A stretch of DNA of 64,000 nucleotides from Deltaproteobacteria bacterium (GCA_017992605.1 JAGOOG010000001.1:70655-134654), one strand, 5' to 3'; positions 11,906 through 45,887 are shown, numbered from the stretch's first letter. Notes: a model not told the origin generated them from the letters alone. Made by a program: numbers and translations.

Positions 11906-12610
11906 TTAACGCTTTTCCTGCATGAGAAGGTGTGCGCCATACAGGGCGATGAAGATCACGCTCAGGAAATAGACGATGTCCCTGGTGTCCACGATGCCCT
12001 TGGCGATGTTCTCGAAGTGGGAGGTCGCCCCCAGGTAGTGGAAGAAGGTCAGCACGGGCGCAGGGAAGAAAAAGAGCATCTTGTCGATGAGGCTCAGCGC
12101 GAAGCAGATGATCATGCCGATGATGAAGGCCACGATCTGGTTCCTGGTGGTGGCCGAGGCGAAGATGCCGATGGCGCTGTAGGCGCTCCCCAGGAGAACG
12201 GCCCCCAGGAAGCCCCCGATGACCGGGCCCCAGTCGAGGTCGCCCATGAACGAGGCCCAGACGGCATAGGAGAGCGTCGGCACCAGCATCAGGGTGACGA
12301 AGGCCACACAGGCGAGGAATTTGCCGACGATCACGTCGTTCAACCGCACCGGCAGGGTGAGCAGCATCTCGAGGCTGCCGATGTGGAGTTCCTCGGCAAA
12401 GAGGCGCATGGTGACTGCGGGGATCACGAAGGGAAAGACGAGCGGCAGCATGGAGAAGAAGGCCCGCAGCGAGGCCTGGTCCATGATGAAGAAGGTGGCG
12501 AAGAAGAACCATCCCGTGATCAGCAGGAAGATGCAGATCACGATGTAGGCAATGGGCGTAACGAAGTAGTCCTTGAGTTCCTTGGCGAATATGTGCAGTG
12601 CCTGAGCCAT
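11906..12610 (-). CDS. ABC-2 family transporter permease (GldF-like)
   Basis: Six predicted TM helices. Conserved ABC-2 features. Confidence 0.75.
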   Translation of the reverse strand: MAQALHIFAKELKDYFVTPIAYIVICIFLLITGWFFFATFFIMDQASLRAFFSMLPLVFPFVIPAVTMRLFAEELHIGSLEMLLTLPVRLNDVIVGKFLACVAFVTLMLVPTLSYAVWASFMGDLDWGPVIGGFLGAVLLGSAYSAIGIFASATTRNQIVAFIIGMIICFALSLIDKMLFFFPAPVLTFFHYLGATSHFENIAKGIVDTRDIVYFLSVIFIALYGAHLLMQEKR

Positions 12611-15959: not shown

Positions 15960-16176
15960 GCTGCACAAGCCACCTCGGAGGCACCGCACTCCTCGCCAAC
16001 GGACAGGGGCGACTGCCCGGGACGGCAGCGTCCCGGATCCCTGCAAGGTACGCGCTCACTCCAGCTTGAAGTTGCACAAGTCGTTCCTTACATCTATAAC
16101 AAGCACAGGCGGTGATGTCGCCCACGAGGTGCTGCGGATCACGGCCCATCAACCATTCAATCGACGAGGAGGACGC

Positions 16177-16935
16177 GAGATGTCCGCACCAGGAACAGCT
16201 CAGGATCATGCAAACATGTGGAAGGTCGTCAGGGTGCAGCCCGAAAGCCACGACACGAACTCTCTCTTTCTGGAAGGCAGCGACGAGAAGTTTCTCGGGA
16301 GAAAGGCCGGCCAGTACGCATCCATCAGGATCATGAGGCCCGACGGATGGAGCGAGCCCCATCCGTTCACCATATCCTGCGCCCCCGAGGATGCCCAGTT
16401 ACGCTTCACCATAAAGAAGATCGGGAAATTCACTTCCGCCGTCCCCGACCTCATGCCCGGGACCCCGGTGAAGTGCGCAGGCCCCCTCGGCGTCTTCTGC
16501 ACGGACATCGATGCCCGTCCCTCCATCGTGATGATTGCAGGAGGCGTCGGCATAACGCCGTTTCTGAGCGTGCTGCGGCATTTCCGGAACATCGGCGCCG
16601 GCAACGAGGTGAAACTCTTCTGGTCCAACAAGACCATCGAGGACGTGATCTGCTCCGACGAGATCTCCGAGATGACGAAGGCCCTCAGGCTCAGGGTGAT
16701 TCACAACCTGAGCCGCGATGAGGACGTGAAGCGTCACAGGCGCGACTCCTTTCCCGAGGTCTTCTATGAGCCCGGAAGGCTCGGTGCGGATGTCCTCGGC
16801 AGGCACGGGGTATCGGCCGGGTCCGCGTTCTACCTCTGCGGACCGCCGCCCATGATGGACTCCGCGCTGCAGGAGCTGTCATCGCTGGGAGTGGACCCTG
16901 ACAAGGTGGAGCGTGAGAAGTTCAGCTGGAAGTAA
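16177..16935 (+). CDS. FAD/NAD(P)-binding oxidoreductase (ferredoxin-NADP reductase-like)
   Basis: RxYS-type FAD motif (QYASIRI), GGVGITPFLSVL NAD(P)-binding glycine-rich loop, C-terminal CGPPPM motif. Confidence 0.7.
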   Translation, partial: EMSAPGTAQDHANMWKVVRVQPESHDTNSLFLEGSDEKFLGRKAGQYASIRIMRPDGWSEPHPFTISCAPEDAQLRFTIKKIGKFTSAVPDLMPGTPVKCAGPLGVFCTDIDARPSIVMIAGGVGITPFLSVLRHFRNIGAGNEVKLFWSNKTIEDVICSDEISEMTKALRLRVIHNLSRDEDVKRHRRDSFPEVFYEPGRLGADVLGRHGVSAGSAFYLCGPPPMMDSALQELSSLGVDPDKVEREKFSWK

Positions 16936-16967
16936 GCACGGGTATGGCCGGTCGTGAGACGAGCGCG

Positions 16968-17429
16968 ATGAGGGCGTCACCGGGAAGGAAGAAGGTGCTG
17001 TTTGTCTGCGTGCACAACAGCGGCCGGAGCCAGATGGCCCAGGCCTGGCTGAATCTCGTCTGTCCCGACCTGTTCGAGGCACAGAGCGCTGGCATAACGC
17101 CATCCCGCGAGATAAACCCCCTGGTCGTCGAGATCATGTCAGAGGTGGGGGTCGACCTGTCGGGACGCAGGCCCAGGAGCGTCTTCGATGTGTACAAGTC
17201 CGGGGAGGTCTTCTCCTACATCATCACGGTGTGCGACGAGGCCAGTGCCGAAAGGTGCCCGGTGTTCCTCGGTCTGATCAGGCAGCTGCACTGGAGCTTC
17301 CCTGACCCTGCCGCCCTGAGAGGGACCCGCGATGAGATACGGGAAGGGATACGCACGATCAGGGACGCCATCCGAGACAGGATTGTCGCATGGTGCCGCG
17401 AGGTCTCCTCAGGGGCACAAAACCCGTAA
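16968..17429 (+). CDS. low-molecular-weight phosphotyrosine phosphatase-family arsenate reductase (ArsC, thioredoxin-coupled type)
   Basis: P-loop CVHNSGRSQMAQAW (CX5R) and downstream Cys pair (ITVCDEASAERCPV) typical of LMW-PTP-type ArsC. Confidence 0.7.
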   Translation: MRASPGRKKVLFVCVHNSGRSQMAQAWLNLVCPDLFEAQSAGITPSREINPLVVEIMSEVGVDLSGRRPRSVFDVYKSGEVFSYIITVCDEASAERCPVFLGLIRQLHWSFPDPAALRGTRDEIREGIRTIRDAIRDRIVAWCREVSSGAQNP

Positions 17430-18606: not shown

Positions 18607-18789
18607 AAGACCCCCTTTGAACCTGCAGGAAGCGGCCGTTTATTCCGATTCCACATCCGAGATTTGATATTCCCTTTTGACTTTTTCCGGCTGGCATTTA
18701 CCTTACTACAGTGGAGGCAATGCCGCCGGCGTCGGGGGTACTGCCGTGTCAGAGAGCAGAGCCGTACACGATGGGGAGGTCGTGCCATG

Positions 18790-19524
18790 GGAAAGCTTAT
18801 CGGCGAGAGGTTTCAGCAGGAGACCAAGTATGACCGGTGGAGGATGCCTGAGCATTCCATCGACTGGGGGAAGAAGCCCCTTGCCCACAAGGAATACCTC
18901 GATGCCAGGAGGATCGCCCTCGACAGACCGAAGCTCACCGGAGACATGGGCCTTTTCGAGTCAATCCTGAGGAGAAAGAGCCTTCGCAGGTTCGTGGACG
19001 TAGCGATAAGCATGGACGCCATCTCGTGCATCCTGTGGGCATCGAGCGGCATACAGCGAAAGGAGATGGGCTTCGAGTTCCGGACAGCGCCTTCTGCAGG
19101 GGCCCTGTATCCCATAGAAACCTATGCGATCGTTCACCGCGTGGAGGGGATCGAACCGGGGGTCTACCACTACCATGTCAGGGGCCATGCCCTCGAAGAG
19201 ATCAAGAAGGGCGACTTCCGGCCCAACATCGCCCAGGCGGCGCTCGGACAGATCATGTGTGCCCAGGCCTCGGTCGTCATCGCGTGGACGGCCCTCTTCG
19301 AGCGTTCCGCATGGAAATACAGGCAGCGCGCCTACCGTTATGTGTACCTGGACGCAGGGCATATGGCCCAGAACCTTGCCCTCGTGGCCATCAGCCTCGG
19401 ACTGGGGAGCTGTCAGGTCGGGGCGCTGTTCGATGACGAGGTGAACGATCTGCTGGGCGTCGACGGCACCGGCGAGAGCATCCTCTACATGAGCGTAGTC
19501 GGACAGCCCGGGATGTATGTGTGA
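18790..19524 (+). CDS. SagB-type dehydrogenase domain protein (nitroreductase superfamily)
   Basis: PSAGALYPIETY and YVYLDAGHMAQNLAL motifs characteristic of SagB/ThcOx-type FMN dehydrogenases. No YcaO or precursor peptide nearby. Confidence 0.7.
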   Translation, partial: GKLIGERFQQETKYDRWRMPEHSIDWGKKPLAHKEYLDARRIALDRPKLTGDMGLFESILRRKSLRRFVDVAISMDAISCILWASSGIQRKEMGFEFRTAPSAGALYPIETYAIVHRVEGIEPGVYHYHVRGHALEEIKKGDFRPNIAQAALGQIMCAQASVVIAWTALFERSAWKYRQRAYRYVYLDAGHMAQNLALVAISLGLGSCQVGALFDDEVNDLLGVDGTGESILYMSVVGQPGMYV

Positions 19525-38082: not shown

Positions 38083-39177
38083 ATGGACCAGGCAGACCAG
38101 GGTGTGAACAGAAACGGGAACAAGATCTACGTCTATTGCGTTCTTGCCGTTTTCGCGGCTATCGTTCTTGCAGGTGTCTTCTGCTATGTCTGGCACTCGC
38201 GTAACTACATCGGCACCGACGACGCGTATGTAACCGGGAGCATCCATACCGTTGCGCCGAAGGTTTCGGGTACCGTCAAGGCGGTGCTGGTGAAAGACAA
38301 CCAATCCGTGAAGAGGGGCGATCTCCTCGTGGAGATCGACAGCACGGATCTTGACGTAAAGGTCCTGGACGCAGGGGCTGTAGTGGAAACGGAGGAGTCG
38401 AAGCTCCGCGAGTCTTCCATGAGGATAGAAGTGGCCCGGCAGCAGCTCGAAGAGATCATGACGAGGATCGAATCGGCAAAGGCGAACCTCGTGCTCCAGG
38501 AGGCGAACATCAGGCAGTCGCGCCAAGACCTCGACCGTTCGCGAAGGCTCTATGAGAGCGGTGCACTGGCCCAAGAGCGGCTGGAAAAGGCCCAGACCGG
38601 ATATGACATTGCTCAGGCACAGCTGCAGTACGCCCGGGAACAGGTGAAACAGGCCCGGGCAGCCCGGGAAACACAGGACCTGCTGATACGTCAGGCTCAG
38701 GCGGCATATCAGTCGCAGACCCATGTGGCGGAACAGAAGAGGCAGGTCCTCGCGGCCGCTACGCTCACCCGGAGCTACACGAAGATTGCCGCCTCATCCG
38801 ACGGGTATGTCACCAGGAAGAATGTGGAGCCGGGCAACCAGGTGCAGGCAGGCCAGCCGCTCATGGCCATCGTTTCCCTCGATGATGTCTGGATCTTGGC
38901 CAACTACAAGGAAACCCAGCTTGAGCGGGTGCGACCCGGGCAGAAGGTCGAGATAAAGGTGGACACCTTTTCGGGGAAGATCCTGGAGGGAAGGGTCGAC
39001 AGTATCATGGCAGGAACCGGGTCCGTCTTTTCTCTGTTTCCCCCAGAAAATGCAACGGGTAACTACGTGAAGGTCGTCCAGCGCATCCCCGTGAAGATCG
39101 TACTCGATCAGGGAAGCGATCCCGACCGTGTCCTGAGGGTGGGAATGTCGGTACAGCCCACCATAGCCGTGAGATAG
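38083..39177 (+). CDS. multidrug efflux MFP, HlyD/EmrA family
   Basis: N-terminal TM, lipoyl/biotinyl-like hairpin and long coiled coil. Followed by an EmrB-like MFS pump. Confidence 0.8.
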   Translation: MDQADQGVNRNGNKIYVYCVLAVFAAIVLAGVFCYVWHSRNYIGTDDAYVTGSIHTVAPKVSGTVKAVLVKDNQSVKRGDLLVEIDSTDLDVKVLDAGAVVETEESKLRESSMRIEVARQQLEEIMTRIESAKANLVLQEANIRQSRQDLDRSRRLYESGALAQERLEKAQTGYDIAQAQLQYAREQVKQARAARETQDLLIRQAQAAYQSQTHVAEQKRQVLAAATLTRSYTKIAASSDGYVTRKNVEPGNQVQAGQPLMAIVSLDDVWILANYKETQLERVRPGQKVEIKVDTFSGKILEGRVDSIMAGTGSVFSLFPPENATGNYVKVVQRIPVKIVLDQGSDPDRVLRVGMSVQPTIAVR

Positions 39178-39196
39178 ACCGGGCCGGGATATCCGC

Positions 39197-40759
39197 GTGT
39201 CGGGTCCGTCCCCGCAGAGCCAGCCGAACAAGTGGGTCGTGGCATCCACCGTGATGCTCCCCATGCTCATGGTGGTGCTCGATACGTCGGTGGTGAACGT
39301 GTCCCTGGATCATATCCGGGGGAGCCTGTCCGCAGGCATCGACGAGGCCACGTGGTCCATCACGGCCTACCTCGCCTCGAATGCCGTCATCATACCCATG
39401 ACCGGCTGGATCAGCCGCCTCGTGGGCCGGAAGCGTTATCTCATCTTCTCCATCATAATGTTCACGCTGAGCTCGTTCTTGTGCGGGATATCCTGGAACA
39501 TAGAGAGCCTCATCGTGTTCAGGATCCTCCAGGGCCTCTCCGGCGGCGCCATGCCGCCGCTGTCCCAAGCCATCCTCCTCGAATCGTTCCCCCCGCACCA
39601 GTACGGCATGGCAATGGCAATCTTCGGCATCGGGGTCAGCTTCGGGCCCATCATAGGCCCTGTGCTTGGCGGATGGATCACGGAGGCGCTAACCTGGCAC
39701 TGGGTGTTCTTCATCAACATCCCCATCGGCATCGTTTCGGTCATCATGGCCGTCTTCGTCGTGGTGGACCCGCCATACATGAAGGGCATGCGCATGAAGA
39801 TCGACTATGCAGGGCTCATGCTCCTGGGGCTCGGGGTGGCATGCCTCCAGCTTCTCCTGGATCGGGGCCAGCGGTCTGACTGGTTCAGTTCGGAACTCAT
39901 GCTGGGCCTCGCGGCTGTTGCGGTCTTCTCTCTTGCAGCCTTCGTCGTGGTGGAACGCAATGCCGAGCGACCCGTCGTCGACCTGGGCGTATTCCGGAAC
40001 TATTCCTACACCATAGGCAATATCGCCATGTTCTTCTTCATGGCGAATCTCTTCGGGACCCTGGTGATGCTCCCCATCTATCTCCAGACCCTCATGGGCT
40101 ACACCGCGAGTCTGGCGGGCCTCGTCCTGGCGCCGGGCGGGGTGGCGAACCTCATAACCATGCCCGTTGTCGGGAGGGTCATCCACCGGTACAATCCCAA
40201 GGCCTTCGTCATCATAGGCATACTCTTCACTGCCTATTCGACGCTCCTCATGGCCCGGTTCACCCTGGGGGTGGACTTCGGGACCGTTTTGTGGCCGAGG
40301 ATATACATGGGCGTCGGCATGGGAATGCTCTTCATCCCGCTGACCACCCTTACCATTGCGGGCATCAGGAAGGAGGACATGGGCAACGCCACGGCCGTCT
40401 ACAACCTCATCCGCAATATCGGGGGGAGCATCGGAATCGCCATCGTCACGACCATGGTGAGCCGCAGGGCCCAGTTCCACCAGGCGCGCCTCGTGGACCA
40501 TCTCACCCCCTTTGATCCCCTGTATGCACTGCGTTCACAGCAGGGCGCCGTCCTTCTCCAGCAGCGTGGCCTGGACTCGGCATCGGCGCAGCACGGGGGG
40601 CTGGGCATCATGTATGAGGGCCTGCTGAAACAGGCCGGAATGCTCTCCTTCGCCGACGTGTTCTACCTGCTCACCTGGATGATGATCGTCCTCATACCAC
40701 TGGTGCTCTTCATGAAGAACGTATCATCCCAGGCACCTGCCCAGCCGGGCGTGGATTGA
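39197..40759 (+). CDS. MFS transporter, DHA2 (EmrB/QacA) family, 14 TM
   Basis: MLPMLMVVLDTSVVNVSL and GWISRLVGRKRYL motifs typical of DHA2 drug:H+ antiporters. Confidence 0.85.
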   Translation: MSGPSPQSQPNKWVVASTVMLPMLMVVLDTSVVNVSLDHIRGSLSAGIDEATWSITAYLASNAVIIPMTGWISRLVGRKRYLIFSIIMFTLSSFLCGISWNIESLIVFRILQGLSGGAMPPLSQAILLESFPPHQYGMAMAIFGIGVSFGPIIGPVLGGWITEALTWHWVFFINIPIGIVSVIMAVFVVVDPPYMKGMRMKIDYAGLMLLGLGVACLQLLLDRGQRSDWFSSELMLGLAAVAVFSLAAFVVVERNAERPVVDLGVFRNYSYTIGNIAMFFFMANLFGTLVMLPIYLQTLMGYTASLAGLVLAPGGVANLITMPVVGRVIHRYNPKAFVIIGILFTAYSTLLMARFTLGVDFGTVLWPRIYMGVGMGMLFIPLTTLTIAGIRKEDMGNATAVYNLIRNIGGSIGIAIVTTMVSRRAQFHQARLVDHLTPFDPLYALRSQQGAVLLQQRGLDSASAQHGGLGIMYEGLLKQAGMLSFADVFYLLTWMMIVLIPLVLFMKNVSSQAPAQPGVD

Positions 40760-41022
40760 TAAGCAGCACTTGTCCACGCGGGGGAGGACAGGCAGCGGGA
40801 AGGCCGTGTGCGAAGAACGGGATGGGGGACCTGCGCCGTGACCGTCGGATGGCGCCGGTCGACGATATCTCTGGACCTCAGGAAGGGATCCATATCGAAA
40901 GCATGCATCCACAGGAGAAGCGGTTCGACCGGTAAAGGGATTTGAGCGCTGGGCCCCCTTGACATGAATGATCAAGTATATTACATAAAAGTAAATTAGT
41001 AACCATTCTGGAGCTGTCCACC

Positions 41023-41373
41023 ATGGCTGAAAAGGAGAAGATCATGCGTCAGGACATGGACGCTGCCCGGAGGAAGGCCGATATCCTCAAGGCCCTGGCG
41101 CACCCGGTGAGGATCCGGGTGTTCGAGGCCCTGGCCGATGGCGAGAAGACGGCAGGAGAGCTGGTCGTCATCACGGGCGAGAAGGAGGCCAACACGTCGC
41201 GTCACCTGGCCGTGCTCAGGGCCGCGGGCCTCGTGTGCACGAGGAAGGAAGGGCTCCATGTGTATTATTCGAATTCCATGCCGTGCCTCATACCGATGCT
41301 CGACTGCGTCGAGGAGGCCGTGTGCGCCATCGCGGACGAGCACATGAAGCCATCTCGCTGCATGCGGCAATGA
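41023..41373 (+). CDS. ArsR/SmtB family transcriptional regulator
   Basis: ILKALAHPVRIRVFEALADGEKTAGELV...SRHLAVLRAAGLV winged HTH. C-terminal Cys cluster (CLIPMLDCVEEAVC) could be a metal(loid)-sensing site. Confidence 0.8.
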   Translation: MAEKEKIMRQDMDAARRKADILKALAHPVRIRVFEALADGEKTAGELVVITGEKEANTSRHLAVLRAAGLVCTRKEGLHVYYSNSMPCLIPMLDCVEEAVCAIADEHMKPSRCMRQ

Positions 41374-41401
41374 TTCATACACCAGGAAAGAAGGTCTTCA
41401 C

Positions 41402-42700
41402 ATGAACTGGAATGACGAATGGAAATGGCTCGCCGGTCTGGCAGGGGCCTTCCTTGTCCTCTTCTATCTCCCGGTAGGTCTACCCCGTTTCGACAATGCC
41501 GTCCTCGAGGGTCTCTACCTGGCCAGATCCTATGCGCAGGAGCACGTCATCCTCTGCCTGCTCCCCGCCTTCTTCATTGCAGGGGCCATCGGTGTGTTCC
41601 TGTCCCAGAACACGGTCATGAAGTACCTGGGAGCCGACGCAAAAAAGGTCCTGGCCTACGGCGTGGCATCGGTGTCAGGCACCATCCTGGCCGTGTGTTC
41701 CTGCACCATCCTGCCGCTCTTCGCGGGCATCTACCGCATGGGCGCCGGGCTCGGGCCGGCGGTGGCGTTCCTCTACTCCGGGCCGGCCATCAATGTGCTT
41801 GCCATCATTCTCACCGCCCGGATCCTGGGTATCGAACTCGGTATAGCCAGGGCCGTGGGCGCCATAGCCTTCAGCGTCATCATCGGCCTCATCATGCACG
41901 TGATCTACCGCAAGGAGAAGGAAGGACGGGACGGGCCGAAGATGATGCTGGGCGGGGAAAACGGCATGAGGCCCCTGTGGCAGAACGTCCTGTACTTCGC
42001 CGCCATGATCGCGGTGCTCGTGTTCGCCAACTGGGGCAGGCCCCAGGATGAAACCGGATTCTGGCACCTGGTCTACGCCTCGAAATGGATCATCACCTCC
42101 TTCAGCGCGGCGGGCCTGGGCGTCATGCTCGTGGCCTGGTTCGCGGTGCCGGTGCTCAAGGTGGTCGCTGTGGCAGCCATTACAGCAGTATTCTCCCTCG
42201 CTTTCCCTCATACACCCATGGTCGGCTTCATGGTGGGCGTCATCGGCCTTTCCTACCTCACGAGCACCCAGGAGGGCGAGATGCAGGAGTGGTTCGGGGG
42301 CTCCTGGGGGTTTGCCAAGCAGATCATGCCCATCCTCTTCGCCGGTGTCCTGGTGGCGGGTTTCCTGCTGGGCAGGCCCGGGCACGAGGGGATCATCCCC
42401 TCGGTGTGGGTGAGCTCGCTGGTGGGCGGCAACTCGCTGTCCGCCAACTTCATCGCATCGGTGGCAGGGGCCTTCATGTACTTCGCCACGCTCACCGAGG
42501 TGCCCATCCTCCAGGGGCTCATGGGATCGGGCATGGGCAAGGGCCCGGCCCTGGCCCTGCTGCTGGCGGGTCCGGCCGTGTCGCTGCCCAACATGCTCGT
42601 GATCCGGTCCGTCATCGGAACGGGCAAGACGGTCGTGTATGTAACGCTGGTCATTGTCATGGCCACCATATCCGGATTTCTCTACGGGGCCGTATTCTAG
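41402..42700 (+). CDS. DUF318/ArsP-like permease (YraQ family)
   Basis: Polytopic. Conserved AVCSCTILP (CSC) motif of the DUF318/ArsP permease family. Immediately downstream of arsR. Confidence 0.7.
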   Translation: MNWNDEWKWLAGLAGAFLVLFYLPVGLPRFDNAVLEGLYLARSYAQEHVILCLLPAFFIAGAIGVFLSQNTVMKYLGADAKKVLAYGVASVSGTILAVCSCTILPLFAGIYRMGAGLGPAVAFLYSGPAINVLAIILTARILGIELGIARAVGAIAFSVIIGLIMHVIYRKEKEGRDGPKMMLGGENGMRPLWQNVLYFAAMIAVLVFANWGRPQDETGFWHLVYASKWIITSFSAAGLGVMLVAWFAVPVLKVVAVAAITAVFSLAFPHTPMVGFMVGVIGLSYLTSTQEGEMQEWFGGSWGFAKQIMPILFAGVLVAGFLLGRPGHEGIIPSVWVSSLVGGNSLSANFIASVAGAFMYFATLTEVPILQGLMGSGMGKGPALALLLAGPAVSLPNMLVIRSVIGTGKTVVYVTLVIVMATISGFLYGAVF

Positions 42701-42713
42701 AAAGGAGTACATC

Positions 42714-42950
42714 ATGAAAAAACTGCAGATACTGGGAACGGGATGCGCCAAGTGCATCAGGCTCGCCGCCAACACCGAGGCGGCGGCGAGGAGGGCCGGC
42801 ATCGAGTGCGAGATCGAGAAGGTCACGGACGTCAACCAGATCATGAAGTACGGCGTCATGATGACCCCGGCGCTCGTGGTGGACGGCACGGTGAGGTCGA
42901 CGGGCAGGGTCTTGACACCGGCAGAGATAGAGGTTCTTATCAGGGAATGA
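42714..42950 (+). CDS. thioredoxin-fold redox-active disulfide protein 2 family
   Basis: 78 aa, MKKLQILGTGCAKCIRL with CxxC. AAAGGAG RBS. This family is commonly paired with DUF318 permeases. Confidence 0.7.
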   Translation: MKKLQILGTGCAKCIRLAANTEAAARRAGIECEIEKVTDVNQIMKYGVMMTPALVVDGTVRSTGRVLTPAEIEVLIRE

Positions 42951-43441
42951 GAAGGGGTTTCGTGCAGCCAGCCTTGAAGCGGGCATTCGTCTCAGCCGCG
43001 GCGATCATGTGTGCGGCCGTGGCGTTCGGCCTGCTCGTCAATGCCCTCAGGCCGTCCGGCATACCCCTCGTGGGAGACTGGAGTGCACGCGCCCTCACCG
43101 AGCTCAATGCCGGCGACGTGGAGGTCGTCAATGCCGATGAGGCCTTCGATCTCTACTCGCGCGGACAGGCCCTGTTTGTCGATGCCCGCGACTCCGCTTC
43201 CTACGGGGGGGGCCATCTGCCCGGCGCGGTGAACATCGGACCCGACGACGTCGACGGGCGACCGGAGGAGGTCCGTGCCCTGCTCGGAAACGGCAGGGTG
43301 CTCATAGCCTACTGCCACGACGTGGACTGCCCCTTGGCCTCGGCACTCGCCAGGAGGCTCCGCGAGCTGAGTGCACGCCGCATCGTGGTGCTTCCCGAGG
43401 GCTGGGCAGGCTGGCTGGAGGGGGGATACCCCCATGAATGA
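42947..43441 (+). CDS. rhodanese-domain protein with N-terminal signal/anchor
   Basis: ATGA overlap with the previous gene. DARDSASYGGGHLPGAVNI and YCHDVDC active-site-loop region. Confidence 0.65.
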   Translation: MRRGFVQPALKRAFVSAAAIMCAAVAFGLLVNALRPSGIPLVGDWSARALTELNAGDVEVVNADEAFDLYSRGQALFVDARDSASYGGGHLPGAVNIGPDDVDGRPEEVRALLGNGRVLIAYCHDVDCPLASALARRLRELSARRIVVLPEGWAGWLEGGYPHE

Positions 43442-43940
43442 CCGCGCCGATTCCCGCCAGACTGTTTTCCATGACCGACGCATCCAAGTCCTCGTGACCA
43501 TGGTCCGGCTCGTCCTCGGGACCGTCTTCCTCTCTGCCGGCATCACCAAGATCGTCGACCCGGCCGGATTCGCCCTGGCGGTCTACAACTACCACATCCT
43601 GCCCGCGTGGCTCGTGAACCTGGCCGCCGTCACCCTGCCCTGGATCGAGGTCGTTGCCGGGGTGTGCCTGGTGCTCGGCCTGTGGGTACCGGGAAGCGCC
43701 CTGGTCGTCTCGGTGCTGCTCCTCGCGTTCACGACGGCGCTGGGGTTCAACATGTACCGCGGTCTCGACATAACGTGCGGATGCTTCAGCACCTCCCCGG
43801 GGAGCGGGAAGATAACCTGGTGGTACGTCCTGCGCGACGGCTCCCTGTTCCTTTCCGGGCTGCTCGTGCTCTTCGCCGACCGGGGGCGGTTCTCCCTGTC
43901 CTCGGCTCTTCAGGGAACCGACCGGAACCACCATTCTTGA
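43434..43940 (+). CDS. MauE/DoxX-family membrane protein
   Basis: Four TM helices and the TCGCF motif shared by MauE-like/DoxX-like thiol-redox membrane proteins. Overlaps the rhodanese stop by 8 nt. Confidence 0.55.
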   Translation: MNDRADSRQTVFHDRRIQVLVTMVRLVLGTVFLSAGITKIVDPAGFALAVYNYHILPAWLVNLAAVTLPWIEVVAGVCLVLGLWVPGSALVVSVLLLAFTTALGFNMYRGLDITCGCFSTSPGSGKITWWYVLRDGSLFLSGLLVLFADRGRFSLSSALQGTDRNHHS

Positions 43941-44094
43941 CTTGATCTTCAGGGGAAAATCGGCCATTATGCGAACGAGAAATGATCTGTCTGGGTGACA
44001 AGTCAAGACTCCGTGCGGCAGGGCACCGAAGATGCCGCAGTTGGATTCCTGTTTACCGTCTGGTCCGTGTCGGCAAGAAGGCAGTGGGAGGGGG

Positions 44095-45120
44095 ATGAGG
44101 ATGCCCCTGGACGTCGATCCCCGCGCTGTACCGGTCCTGCTGCTGTACAACGTGGATCCCTCCTGGGAGGCCTCCGAACGGGAAGACGTCGTTGCCGTCA
44201 CGAACCAGCTCCTTCATGCCATAGCAGACATCGGGCATCCCTCCGCGTCGGTCCCCCTGTTCGGGGACAACATGCAGGAGGTCATGGAGCCGTACGGCCG
44301 GACCGAATACATCGTGTTCAACTGGTGCGAGAGTATCCCGGGCAGGCCCCACAGCGAGCCGCAGGTCGCACGGGAGCTGGAGTCCATGGGCTTCACGTTC
44401 ACCGGTGCGGGGTCCACGGCGCTGGACCTCGCCTGCGACAAGCGAAGGGTGAAGAAGGTCCTGGAGGAGTCGGGGATACCGACCCCGTCGTGGCGTCTCT
44501 ACGTCCGTCCCGAAAGGAATCTGTGGGGCAGGTACCCGGCCATCGTCAAGGCCGCGAACGAACACTGCAGCGAGGGCATCACCCGGGAATCCGTGGTCAT
44601 GACCGAGCAGGAGCTTCTCGAGAGGGTGTCCTACATCATCGATGCATACCATCAGCCCGCCCTGGTCGAGGACTTCATAGACGGGAGGGAGTTCCACGTG
44701 TCGCTCTGGGGGAACGGCCGCATCGAGATGCTTCCCCCCGCCGAGATGGACTTCTCGCTGTTCAGCGACTTCCACGACAGGCTCTGCACGCACGACTCGA
44801 AGTGCGTGCCCGGGTCGCTCCACTACGAGGGCATCCAGACCCTGCTGCCTGCACCGTTGAGCGGTGAAGAGCTGCAGGCCCTCGGGAAGGTGTGCATGTC
44901 GGCATACATGGCCGTCGGCTGCAGGGACTACGGCCGACTCGACGTGAGGTCGCGCGATGGTGTGTACTACGTGCTCGACGTGAACCCCAATGCCGATATC
45001 AGTGCGGATGCCAGCCTGGCCTGCGCGGCCGAGATCGCCGGATATTCCTACGGGCAGGCCGGCAGCAGGATCGTGAGGCTCGCCGCTCGCCGTCACCCGG
45101 TGTGGGCGACACAGGACTGA
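44095..45120 (+). CDS. ATP-grasp enzyme, D-alanine--D-alanine ligase-like
   Basis: ATP-grasp fold segments (DKRRVKKVLEESGIPTP, ALVEDFIDGREFHV, DVNPNAD). Substrate unknown. Confidence 0.65.
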   Translation: MRMPLDVDPRAVPVLLLYNVDPSWEASEREDVVAVTNQLLHAIADIGHPSASVPLFGDNMQEVMEPYGRTEYIVFNWCESIPGRPHSEPQVARELESMGFTFTGAGSTALDLACDKRRVKKVLEESGIPTPSWRLYVRPERNLWGRYPAIVKAANEHCSEGITRESVVMTEQELLERVSYIIDAYHQPALVEDFIDGREFHVSLWGNGRIEMLPPAEMDFSLFSDFHDRLCTHDSKCVPGSLHYEGIQTLLPAPLSGEELQALGKVCMSAYMAVGCRDYGRLDVRSRDGVYYVLDVNPNADISADASLACAAEIAGYSYGQAGSRIVRLAARRHPVWATQD

Positions 45121-45146: not shown

Positions 45147-45743
45147 TCACCTGAGTTCGAGGAGTTCGTTGCCCAGCGCTTCGAGATCCTTGCGTTCCTG
45201 AGCCAGCAGTCCCTGGACCAGGCTGTTGTGCCGGTCCACGACGGCATTGAATTCCTTGGTGGCCTGGGGCTTGTCCTTGTCCGGCAGGGCCGCGATCCTT
45301 GCCTGCATCTCCTTGCCCCGGGCATGGAGCCCGCTGACCTCATCGAGGGTGACGAGGTGCCTGGCGGCGAGGTCGATGTATCGCTGGAGCAGGTCCGTGA
45401 ACCTGACCAGGAACGCGCCCGCATCGGGGTCGCTCAGGTCTGACCTGAGCATCATGCCGTTCAACCGCGTCCTGTCCGCCAGATCCATGCGCTCCCTGAG
45501 AGCCTCCTCGGTATCTCCGTCCTTGAGCGTCTCGGAGAAGGCGGTGACGAACTCCCTGTGGACGGCCAGCGCCCTGTTCATCTGGGGTTCCCCGGCTGCC
45601 ACCCCGGGCGCCTCGGAAGAAGCCTCTTCCTGTGCGGGGGTCATCGTCGGAACCTGGACAGACTCATCCTTGTTTGGGCATCCTGCCAGAATCAGGAACA
45701 AACCGAAGGAAGCGATGCAGTAGAAGAAGGCAGGTCTGTGCAT
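45147..45743 (-). CDS. lipoprotein, unknown function
   Basis: Signal peptide with lipobox LAGC. Helical remainder. Confidence 0.5.
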   Translation of the reverse strand: MHRPAFFYCIASFGLFLILAGCPNKDESVQVPTMTPAQEEASSEAPGVAAGEPQMNRALAVHREFVTAFSETLKDGDTEEALRERMDLADRTRLNGMMLRSDLSDPDAGAFLVRFTDLLQRYIDLAARHLVTLDEVSGLHARGKEMQARIAALPDKDKPQATKEFNAVVDRHNSLVQGLLAQERKDLEALGNELLELR

Positions 45744-45887
45744 GCCGGGTCCTCCTTGGATGGAATTGAGAGTATTCATGGTTTTATCTTCTTAACCCTA
45801 GGCCGTGAAAAGTCAAGAAGACAGAGATGTTCATGGATGTTGAAAAATCCTCCGGCAGGTAGTATGAACCCGGGACATATGAACTGA

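Follow-up and report, generated by a model that had tools for sequence, protein, structure and literature searches.

In a 64,000-nucleotide (nt) stretch of DNA from a Deltaproteobacteria bacterium (GCA_017992605.1 JAGOOG010000001.1:70655-134654; hereafter the window, from whose first letter all positions are counted), a listing of open reading frames and profile searches place five co-oriented, closely packed genes on the + strand at 41023-43940, as a preliminary description of this DNA had reported. These genes encode an ArsR-family repressor, an ArsP-type permease, an ArsE-type mini-thioredoxin, a membrane-anchored rhodanese, and a membrane protein of the MauE/DoxX family. We propose, with a probability of about 0.5, that they form an ArsR-repressed, ars-type detoxification operon whose last two genes would supply a thiol relay on the membrane's outer face. 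The source is recorded as an uncultured "Deltaproteobacteria/Desulfomonilia bacterium," a type frequent in anaerobic-digester metagenomes, and public records name all five proteins only generically. The genes (protein lengths in amino acids, aa) and control elements are listed below; in the text, related loci carry L### labels and proteins from a profile search carry P#### labels.

41023-41373, + strand: arsR, a repressor of the ArsR/SmtB family, 116 aa (NF033788; HTH_5, PF01022; HTH_20, PF12840)
41402-42700, + strand: arsP-type permease (ArsP_1/DUF318), 432 aa (PF03773, E = 1.9e-64; CSC at residues 99-101)
42714-42950, + strand: arsE-type mini-thioredoxin (redox-active disulfide protein 2), 78 aa (TIGR00412, PF13192; C11-A-K-C14)
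42947-43441, + strand: membrane-anchored rhodanese, 164 aa (PF00581, E = 7e-13; N-terminal transmembrane (TM) helix)
43434-43940, + strand: MauE/DoxX-family membrane protein, 168 aa (PF07291, E = 1.5e-27; T-C-G-C-F)
40959..40964, + strand: -35-like hexamer TTGACA of the operon promoter, read directly from the sequence
40981..41002, + strand: probable ArsR operator over the -10 region, TTACATA-N8-TTAGTAA, from alignment with relatives

Layout, control, and core of the operon

Short gaps separate the first three genes (28 nt between arsR and arsP, 13 nt between arsP and the mini-thioredoxin gene), and the last two junctions overlap. The mini-thioredoxin and rhodanese genes share a true 4-nt ATGA overlap at 42947; the second ATGA overlap that had been claimed, at 43434, is instead an 8-nt overlap (ATGAATGA) in which the mauE start codon, ATG at 43434, precedes the rhodanese stop codon at 43439-43441. 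The five genes are one translationally coupled unit with a single promoter 5' of arsR. Seven contigs of the same species show the five genes in this order, and the combination of modules is found again, in other gene orders, in distant genomes and metagenomes, an arrangement that is well beyond chance. The preliminary description had made conservation of gene order beyond this genome the check on its proposal, and these distant loci provide it.

In the alignment, the hexamer CTTGAC(A/T) keeps its position 5' of arsR in six related loci, although their flanking DNA is otherwise divergent. A conserved block lies 17 nt past TTGACA, and its invariant part, GTAAATTAGTAA (40991-41002), is kept in the window, L012/L096, L083, L013, L015, and L008 despite diverged surroundings. 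This block is probably the ArsR operator, a candidate that overlaps the -10 region. L008 has a perfect inverted repeat, TTACTAA-N8-TTAGTAA, and in L013 the arms of the operator-like repeat are ATTTACTA/TAGTAAAT. The left arm in the window, TTACATA, is degenerate, with 5/7 positions matching, which accounts for the result that an inverted-repeat finder reported no repeat in the window promoter; the operator is assigned here because of the alignment with relatives. An Rfam scan of the region from 38 to 48 kb gave no match at E ≤ 1.

The repressor scores above cutoff against NF033788 (75.6 bits; cutoff, 55) and PF01022 (39.3 bits; cutoff, 22), and all of its matches to equivalog models, including CmtR, are weak and under cutoff. 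When 40 ArsR proteins encoded directly 5' of ArsP homologues were aligned, the classical CVC motif was present in 34/40. The window ArsR has T-A-G where 34/40 and 29/40 of these ArsP-linked repressors have Cys, and its four closest relatives likewise lack CVC. Judged from this alignment, the canonical type-1 As(III) site is lost in the clade of the window ArsR. The C-terminal Cys cluster that had been attributed to the protein is real (C88, C95, C101, and C113); Cys residues at positions 88 and 95 are kept in 39/40 proteins, C113 is common to the whole five-member clade, and three relatives have a vicinal pair (C112-C113). Because the classical CVC site is lost, the sensor probably uses C88 and C95 together with C-terminal Cys residues.

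The permease matches PF03773 over residues 43-429 (218 bits, E = 1.9e-64) and carries the expected CSC motif, with C99-S-C101 inside a hydrophobic segment (residues 83-106); CSC is the most conserved motif of related permease families (Haft preprint). The 78-aa protein encoded next, which had been recognized as a redox-active disulfide protein 2 with the motif CAKC, exceeds the cutoff of TIGR00412, "MTH895/ArsE family" (100.9 bits; cutoff, 62), matches PF13192 (E = 2e-26), and has MTH895 (1ILO, E = 2.6e-15) as its closest solved structure. Its sequence contains no signal and no hydrophobic or TM segment, so the mini-thioredoxin is predicted to be cytoplasmic.

With the permease as query, a scan limited to one genome per species returned 80 ArsP loci from many phyla at 58-96% identity, 46 of which had enough flanking sequence for neighborhood counts. 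Near ArsP in these 46 loci we found genes for a PF13192 mini-thioredoxin (45/46), ArsR (33/46), CcdA (25/46), an exported (periplasmic) thioredoxin (24/46), an ACR3-type protein (21/46), an ArsC-type protein of the low-molecular-weight protein tyrosine phosphatase (LMW-PTP) type (16/46), and a DGC-domain protein (13/46); ACR3 proteins of relatives scored 372 and 380 bits against TIGR00832 (cutoff, 283). ArsP relatives that are 77-96% identical to the window protein, some of them with a window-type ArsR, adjoin ACR3, ArsC-type, and DGC genes, and at L008, L009, L013, L016, and L096 genes for CcdA and an exported thioredoxin lie around the same ArsP.

ArsR-ArsP-ArsE is an already known core, present in many phyla. 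The PF13192 protein is named ArsE in NCBIfam and in bioRxiv 10.1101/2022.10.17.512643, a preprint that also reports induction of the ArsR-ArsP-ArsE-DGC operon of P. mercurii ND132 by As(III) and by As(V). The preliminary description was right to call the permease and the small thioredoxin a known pair (ArsP/ArsE), and too strong in calling that pair "functionally uncharacterised," since names and literature exist for it.

Other genes were seen among those of the core. A ProC-like gene (F420_oxidored/pyrroline-5-carboxylate reductase family) lies between arsR and arsP in L008, the closest multi-gene relative (L008:1452-2231), and also in L014, L036, and L077; the window lacks it. In L062 a gene (11909-12433) located between those for DGC and ArsC encodes a 174-aa protein whose C-terminal domain matches PF04060 ("putative Fe-S cluster"), and this PF04060 protein recurs between the same two neighbors in the ars islands of L100, L110, L116, L119, and L130.

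Thiol motifs, predicted sidedness, and pairing of rhodanese and MauE

The identification of the last gene product as a MauE/DoxX-type membrane protein with a TCGCF motif stands, with a score of 96.9 bits against PF07291 (cutoff, 27). Its AlphaFold2 (AF2) model (predicted local distance difference test score (pLDDT), 86) contains four helices (residues 15-41, 58-81, 85-108, and 129-148), and C115-G-C117-F lies in the loop that follows helix 3 (109-128). This CGCF motif does not vary among 26 diverse homologues, nor among the 89 loci at which a motif scan found the MauE site.

The rhodanese, too, is as first described, a PF00581 domain (49.3 bits, E = 7e-13) behind one N-terminal hydrophobic helix that serves as a signal anchor. 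In its AF2 model (pLDDT, 83) a helix (9-34) is followed by the domain, in which strand 118-122 leads directly into the active-site loop, Y122-C123-H-D-V-D-C128, and helix 129-140 comes after it; Foldseek matched the model to single-domain rhodaneses with a probability of 1.0. An automated motif scan found Y-C-x4-C in 61/62 loops, three loci that the scan had missed were confirmed by eye, and one locus has no Cys in the rhodanese loop. The consensus of 47 unique loops is Y-C-D-G-x-x-C, in which the second Cys is invariant and the inner residues are Asp or Glu at 77/188 positions (41%) and Lys or Arg at 2/188 (1%).

With the sequence C-H-D-V-D-C, the window loop is not of the basic or hydrogen-bonding CRxGx[R/T] type, which binds anionic sulfur donors. 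An arsenate reductase of the Cdc25/Acr2 type was also considered and rejected, as that activity needs a seven-residue C-x5-R loop and the one found here has six residues and no Arg. Because the loop is an acidic C-x4-C with nearly no basic residue, the sequence favors a dithiol that is redox-active or binds a metal or metalloid over one that transfers sulfane sulfur, and it favors the view that this rhodanese is not a standard persulfide carrier. Selenocysteine (Sec)-containing variants of the rhodanese or of MauE were sought in the fetched loci and none was found, the lone apparent case being a wrong-frame artifact.

The topology check that had been suggested for these motifs places both of them on the periplasmic side, as a prediction based on AF2 helices, charge bias, and fusion order. 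Lys and Arg are concentrated in the N- and C-terminal tails of MauE, which argues for an N-in/C-in protein with CGC outside. The rhodanese begins with a positively charged N terminus followed by its single hydrophobic helix, and in natural fusions the predicted cytoplasmic C terminus of MauE is followed by one more TM helix and then by the rhodanese, an order that would put the rhodanese outside. The rhodanese dithiol and the MauE CGC motif are thus both predicted to face the periplasm.

The fusions are P0198 (333 aa) and P0251 (326 aa), each with the arrangement MauE-TM-rhodanese and with both Cys motifs. The gene for P0198 (within L175:5643-7002, GCA_000422285.1) is the only gene after one for an ArsR with a canonical MCVCE motif, and the two coding regions overlap; that for P0251 (within L177:224-1887) follows a DUF1573 gene. 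Where the two proteins are separate, the rhodanese gene is directly 5' of the MauE gene, mostly overlapping it, in every MauE-homologue context examined. In a metagenome scan with a 10-sequence MauE alignment, from which loci were sampled in order of similarity to the window MauE, the rhodanese gene was directly 5' of the MauE gene in 59/65 loci with at least 600 nt upstream. A rhodanese profile searched against 1.84 billion representatives matched 338 cluster representatives at E ≤ 1e-30; the best 150 of these 338 are mostly 160-180 aa long and match from near the N terminus of the profile, so the best-scoring matches appear to include the anchor helix. Based on these results, the rhodanese and MauE are an obligate pair.

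A rhodanese fold also invites a reading in terms of sulfur or selenium trafficking, in which the rhodanese would carry a persulfide, with C128 as the resolving residue, and MauE/DoxX would couple to the quinone pool as in DoxDA. The product would be external sulfide or sulfane sulfur, which would thiolate or precipitate the exported arsenical or serve general sulfur and selenium metabolism. The nearest solved structures to the rhodanese are sulfurtransferases, its loop is six residues long, and the DoxD/DoxX clan includes a quinone oxidoreductase. In the Bordo and Bork classification, a six-residue loop is reportedly typical of rhodaneses that transfer sulfur or selenium, not of Cdc25/Acr2. 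This reading would also accommodate the SelD genes directly 5' of the pair in L094, L156, and L167, the SelB gene that adjoins it in L009, and the thioarsenicals that ND132 possibly produces. However, an acidic loop (41% Asp or Glu, 2/188 basic residues) offers nothing for binding thiosulfate or stabilizing a persulfide anion, and its invariant second Cys suggests a dithiol/disulfide. The fusion to DsbD and thioredoxin in TsoB-type proteins (see the last section) points to electron transfer, the operon contains no sulfur-metabolism gene, and the regulators in control are of the ArsR type. We consider sulfur or selenium trafficking unlikely to be the function of the pair.

Genetic contexts of the rhodanese-MauE pair

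Of the 39 metagenomic MauE loci that are closest to the window MauE and extend 3 kb or more upstream, 23 (59%) had one or more ars markers and 18 had at least two; ArsP was found at 13, Acr3 at 14, CcdA at 15, and an exported thioredoxin at 18, percentages that overstate the family-wide rate because the sample was ranked by similarity to the window protein. Seen from the permease, the pair is present in 8/80 ArsP loci, all of them Desulfobacterota-type metagenome-assembled genomes, in several gene orders and at 34-79% identity. An ArsC-type gene lies directly before the rhodanese gene in L046 and L062, ACR3 and ArsC-type genes adjoin the pair in relatives, and ars-linked MauE proteins are scattered over most clades of a neighbor-joining tree. 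With ACR3 and ArsC-type genes beside the pair and the ND132 operon induced by arsenic, the metalloid link is stronger than the preliminary description saw.

The pair also recurs in other company. DUF1573 genes, whose products are Ig-like, exported, and weak matches to the "OS_HP2 family (seleno)protein" model, flank it in 13/39 metagenomic MauE loci (for example L092:3720-4448 and L093:3713-4486), and the DUF1573-linked MauE proteins form their own clade in the neighbor-joining tree, apart from most of the ars-linked ones. In L094 (3481-5600) a SelD gene (TIGR00476, 343 bits; cutoff, 125) is directly 5' of a C-x4-C rhodanese-MauE pair and overlaps it, SelD is directly 5' of the pair in L156 and L167 as well, and a SelB gene lies just 3' of an ars-linked pair in L009 and L010. 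These genes suggest a selenium connection for the rhodanese-MauE module. A gene for a ZitB-like cation diffusion facilitator (CDF) efflux protein with a His-rich N terminus and a Cys-rich C terminus is situated between or beside the rhodanese and MauE genes at L045:2630-3736, L060:5253-6380, and L062:14053-15102, and in about ten metagenomic loci, such as L112, L116, L119, L125, L132, L158, and L165. The recurring partners of the pair all involve thiophilic elements or thiol redox proteins.

The CDF genes bear on the possibility that the operon handles a soft divalent metal (Cd, Pb, Zn, or Cu), with a CmtR-like ArsR, a cation-exporting permease like SO_0444, and the rhodanese loop as a periplasmic metal site. 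A repressor without CVC that matches CmtR and other models weakly would fit this possibility, the SO_0444 Cu/Zn exporter is among the nearest named relatives of ArsP, ZitB-like CDF genes lie between or beside the rhodanese and MauE genes in at least ten loci, two Cys residues in an Asp/Glu loop suit cations, and a Metal_resist gene is near the fusion gene in L175. On the other hand, the closest ArsP relatives (77-96% identical) adjoin ACR3, ArsC-type, and DGC genes, most ArsP-linked repressors have the As(III)-type CVC motif, the ND132 operon responds to arsenic, and all matches to metal-specific families are far under cutoff. A divalent-metal operon is therefore improbable in our judgment.

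The DUF1573 genes, in turn, raise the question of a general envelope disulfide system, similar to MauE/MauD or DsbB/DsbA, that would mature exported Cys proteins such as DUF1573 and would merely be carried in ars islands. MauE and the thioredoxin-like MauD are needed for the disulfide-rich small subunit of MADH, and a maturation role of this kind would be in keeping with the DUF1573 genes that flank the pair in 13/39 loci and precede the gene for the P0251 fusion. The CXC motifs are likewise compatible with it, as CXC motifs are oxidizing. Against a maturation system, the window operon has no gene for an exported, Cys-rich substrate, and the pair is under an ArsR-controlled promoter, with the gene for a CVC-type ArsR overlapping the start of the fusion gene in L175. 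The DUF1573-linked MauE clade is separate from most ars-linked MauE proteins, and neither DsbB nor VKOR is among the structural matches of MauE in the PDB. We give such a disulfide system only a small chance.

Chance adjacency of unrelated genes, for which one could cite the presence of the pair at only 3/46 ArsP loci, is refuted by the comparative data and has next to no probability. The coding regions overlap, the order is identical in seven same-species contigs, the genes are linked again in other orders at 34-79% identity, ars markers are present at 59% of the closest MauE loci, and fusion proteins exist. These data demonstrate that the addition of the rhodanese and MauE to ArsP/ArsE is a conserved one and not a matter of chance neighbors.

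Several observations weigh against arsenic detoxification as the role of the operon. As the CVC As(III) site is lost in this ArsR clade, the inducer could differ from arsenic. The permease is far under its nearest equivalogs, with 104 of the 325 bits required for SaoE and 95 of 300 for the SO_0444 Cu/Zn exporter. A tblastn search of the whole window found no Acr3, CcdA, DGC, or periplasmic thioredoxin, in agreement with the earlier statement that acr3 is absent here, and the sole ArsC-like gene in the window is an LMW-PTP type at 16944-17429, about 24 kb off, as had also been stated. The metagenomic MauE sample is biased to the window protein's own clade, and the pair, when counted from ArsP, is an infrequent accessory, present in 3/46 loci with enough flank. 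Finally, the pair is also found without any ars gene, with DUF1573, with SelD, or alone, and it is thus not arsenic-specific.

The neighbors of the operon include one gene that had been counted as part of the system:

44095-45120, + strand: ATP-grasp gene (match to an ATP-grasp C-terminal domain)

The likely start of this gene, at 44095, has a ribosome-binding site, GGGAGGGGG, before its ATG and is about 155 nt after mauE. Only same-species contigs have this gene beside the cluster. Searches with tblastn of 80 ArsP loci and 80 MauE loci found no ATP-grasp gene beside the cluster, and it accompanies the cluster in 0 of about 165 related loci outside the species. The best NCBIfam Ddl model gives 88.5 bits (cutoff, 243), all Ddl models being under cutoff, and only a generic C-terminal domain matches. 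The gap of about 155 nt, the missing linkage, and the sub-cutoff Ddl scores rule the ligase out as a sixth member; it is a downstream neighbor only. No RNA element was found between mauE and the ATP-grasp gene; there is no Rfam match and the spacer folds no more stably than shuffled sequence (z = +1.5).

Farther downstream, a convergent gene (45147-45779, - strand) encodes a protein of 210 aa that matches nothing in Pfam or NCBIfam and carries a lipobox-like signal (LAGC). Genes for an EmrA/HlyD-type membrane-fusion protein and a 520-aa transporter of the major facilitator superfamily (MFS) occupy 38083-40759 (+ strand) and end 263 nt before arsR; a 520-aa MFS gene is also 5' of the cluster in L008. 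The ArsC-like gene of the window is directly 3' of a flavoprotein reductase gene with FAD- and NAD-binding domains (16066-16935), a nitroreductase-family gene is nearby (18664-19524), and no ArsR or efflux gene adjoins it.

A candidate periplasmic relay and its relation to known systems

In the ArsR-repressed detoxification operon that we propose, ArsP, helped by ArsE, would expel a trivalent, thiophilic arsenical across the inner membrane, and its candidate substrates are As(III), methylarsenite (MAs(III)), and aromatic As(III) species. The rhodanese, tethered at the outer face of the membrane, would present its acidic C-x4-C dithiol, MauE would present CGC at the same face, and the two would act as a periplasmic thiol/disulfide relay. 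Such a relay could either bind the exported metalloid and hand it on or restore periplasmic thiols after attack by the metalloid. A CcdA/DsbD-thioredoxin pathway would feed electrons to the rhodanese in relatives and in the fused protein TsoB; as this pathway is not local in the window, the electrons there would come from MauE or from housekeeping proteins. The transmembrane relay for sulfur, thiols, or metalloid-thiols that the preliminary description had suggested survives in part, in that the invariant, predicted-periplasmic thiol motifs and the ars linkage speak for a thiol/metalloid relay and the acidic C-x4-C loop speaks against persulfide trafficking.

The core of the operon is already known, and the addition of a rhodanese-MauE pair in ars islands of anaerobes is not described in the searchable literature. 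That literature contained no description of a rhodanese or of MauE/DoxX in ars operons, and queries combining DoxX or MauE with arsenic gave only false matches. Tentatively, and with more doubt than for the operon as a whole, we suggest that the pair may be a previously unrecognized two-component periplasmic relay for thiophilic metalloids (arsenic and possibly selenium), an ars-island accessory in anaerobes that may capture and pass on the exported arsenical or convert it, for example to a thio-arsenical.

New ars genes have repeatedly revealed new arsenic chemistry, as with ArsM, ArsI, ArsH, ArsP, and ArsEFG. To our knowledge, nearly all mechanistic work on ars systems has been done in aerobes, and we know of no ars module that acts outside the inner membrane. 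A module acting there would make sense in anoxic, sulfidic habitats because exported trivalent arsenicals stay reduced and toxic in them; if our proposal is correct, the relay answers a problem that is absent in aerobes, since As(III) and MAs(III) are not oxidized spontaneously under anoxia. The candidate is well defined, consisting of two small proteins with two invariant Cys motifs, natural fusions, and ArsR-type control, and it is tied to the long-unexplained CcdA and thioredoxin genes of ars operons. A large branch of MauE/DoxX would also gain its first defined physiological partner and role. In this very large family, as far as we know, almost no biochemistry has been assigned, and a defined partner and phenotype would be useful beyond arsenic.

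One of the closest known systems is "operon C" of ND132 (DND132_2311-2314), which has the same first three genes in the same order (ArsR, ArsP_1, and the PF13192 protein ArsE), a likeness of family and order. The window differs from it in lacking DGC, in adding the rhodanese and MauE, and in having an ArsR without CVC. ArsP of Campylobacter jejuni is a methylarsenite efflux permease of the organo-arsenical exporter family of TCDB (Chen et al. 2015, as cited in PMC9144182). It shares PF03773 and a vicinal Cys pair (CSC) in a membrane segment with the window permease, whereas the latter has 432 aa, a long central region, and membership in a family that is paired with a mini-thioredoxin (45/46 loci).

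The likeness to MauE and MauD of mau clusters lies in a shared PF07291 membrane protein with a small, exported thiol-redox partner. In the window, however, this partner is a rhodanese and not a thioredoxin-like MauD, and the context is metalloid resistance; no MauD-like or MADH gene was present in the operon and its Pfam-annotated neighbors in same-species loci (about 41-45 kb, extended by L001-L007), the rest of the window not having been screened. A DoxX or DoxD membrane protein works with a rhodanese-family protein in the DoxX-SseA-SodA complex of M. tuberculosis and in the thiosulfate:quinone oxidoreductase DoxDA. The window pair likewise combines a protein of the DoxX/DoxD clan with one of the rhodanese family in what would be thiol or sulfur redox chemistry, but SseA is cytosolic, has two domains, and is not encoded beside DoxX, whereas the window rhodanese is anchored, has a single domain with C-x4-C, and is encoded by a gene that overlaps mauE. 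MerP and MerT offer a functional analogy with no homology, namely a periplasmic Cys-pair protein and a small Cys-pair membrane protein under a metal-sensing repressor.

The CcdA/DsbD-thioredoxin pathway is represented by genes at L008, L009, L013, L016, and L096 and by none in the whole window (tblastn), from which they are lost or in which they were never present. Its relation to the rhodanese is suggested by TsoB, a "rhodanese/DsbD fusion-like selenoprotein" (NF045694; Haft & Tolstoy 2025, as listed in PMC13188914) whose motif is given there as UxxxxU; the spacing of this U-x4-U in the N-terminal rhodanese of TsoB equals that of C-x4-C in the window. Segments of the TsoB model are matched by the window rhodanese (31-156) and by the CcdA (180-393) and periplasmic thioredoxin (445-568) of L008, all far under the 805-bit cutoff. 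The window rhodanese, at 33.6 bits, covers the rhodanese segment only, is unfused, has Cys in place of Sec with no TGA-encoded Sec, and pairs with MauE, which TsoB does not contain. From these matches TsoB appears to be a fusion in which a rhodanese is joined to a DsbD-like membrane domain and a thioredoxin; by analogy with DsbD, a reductive electron pathway would have the rhodanese as its output domain in the periplasm.

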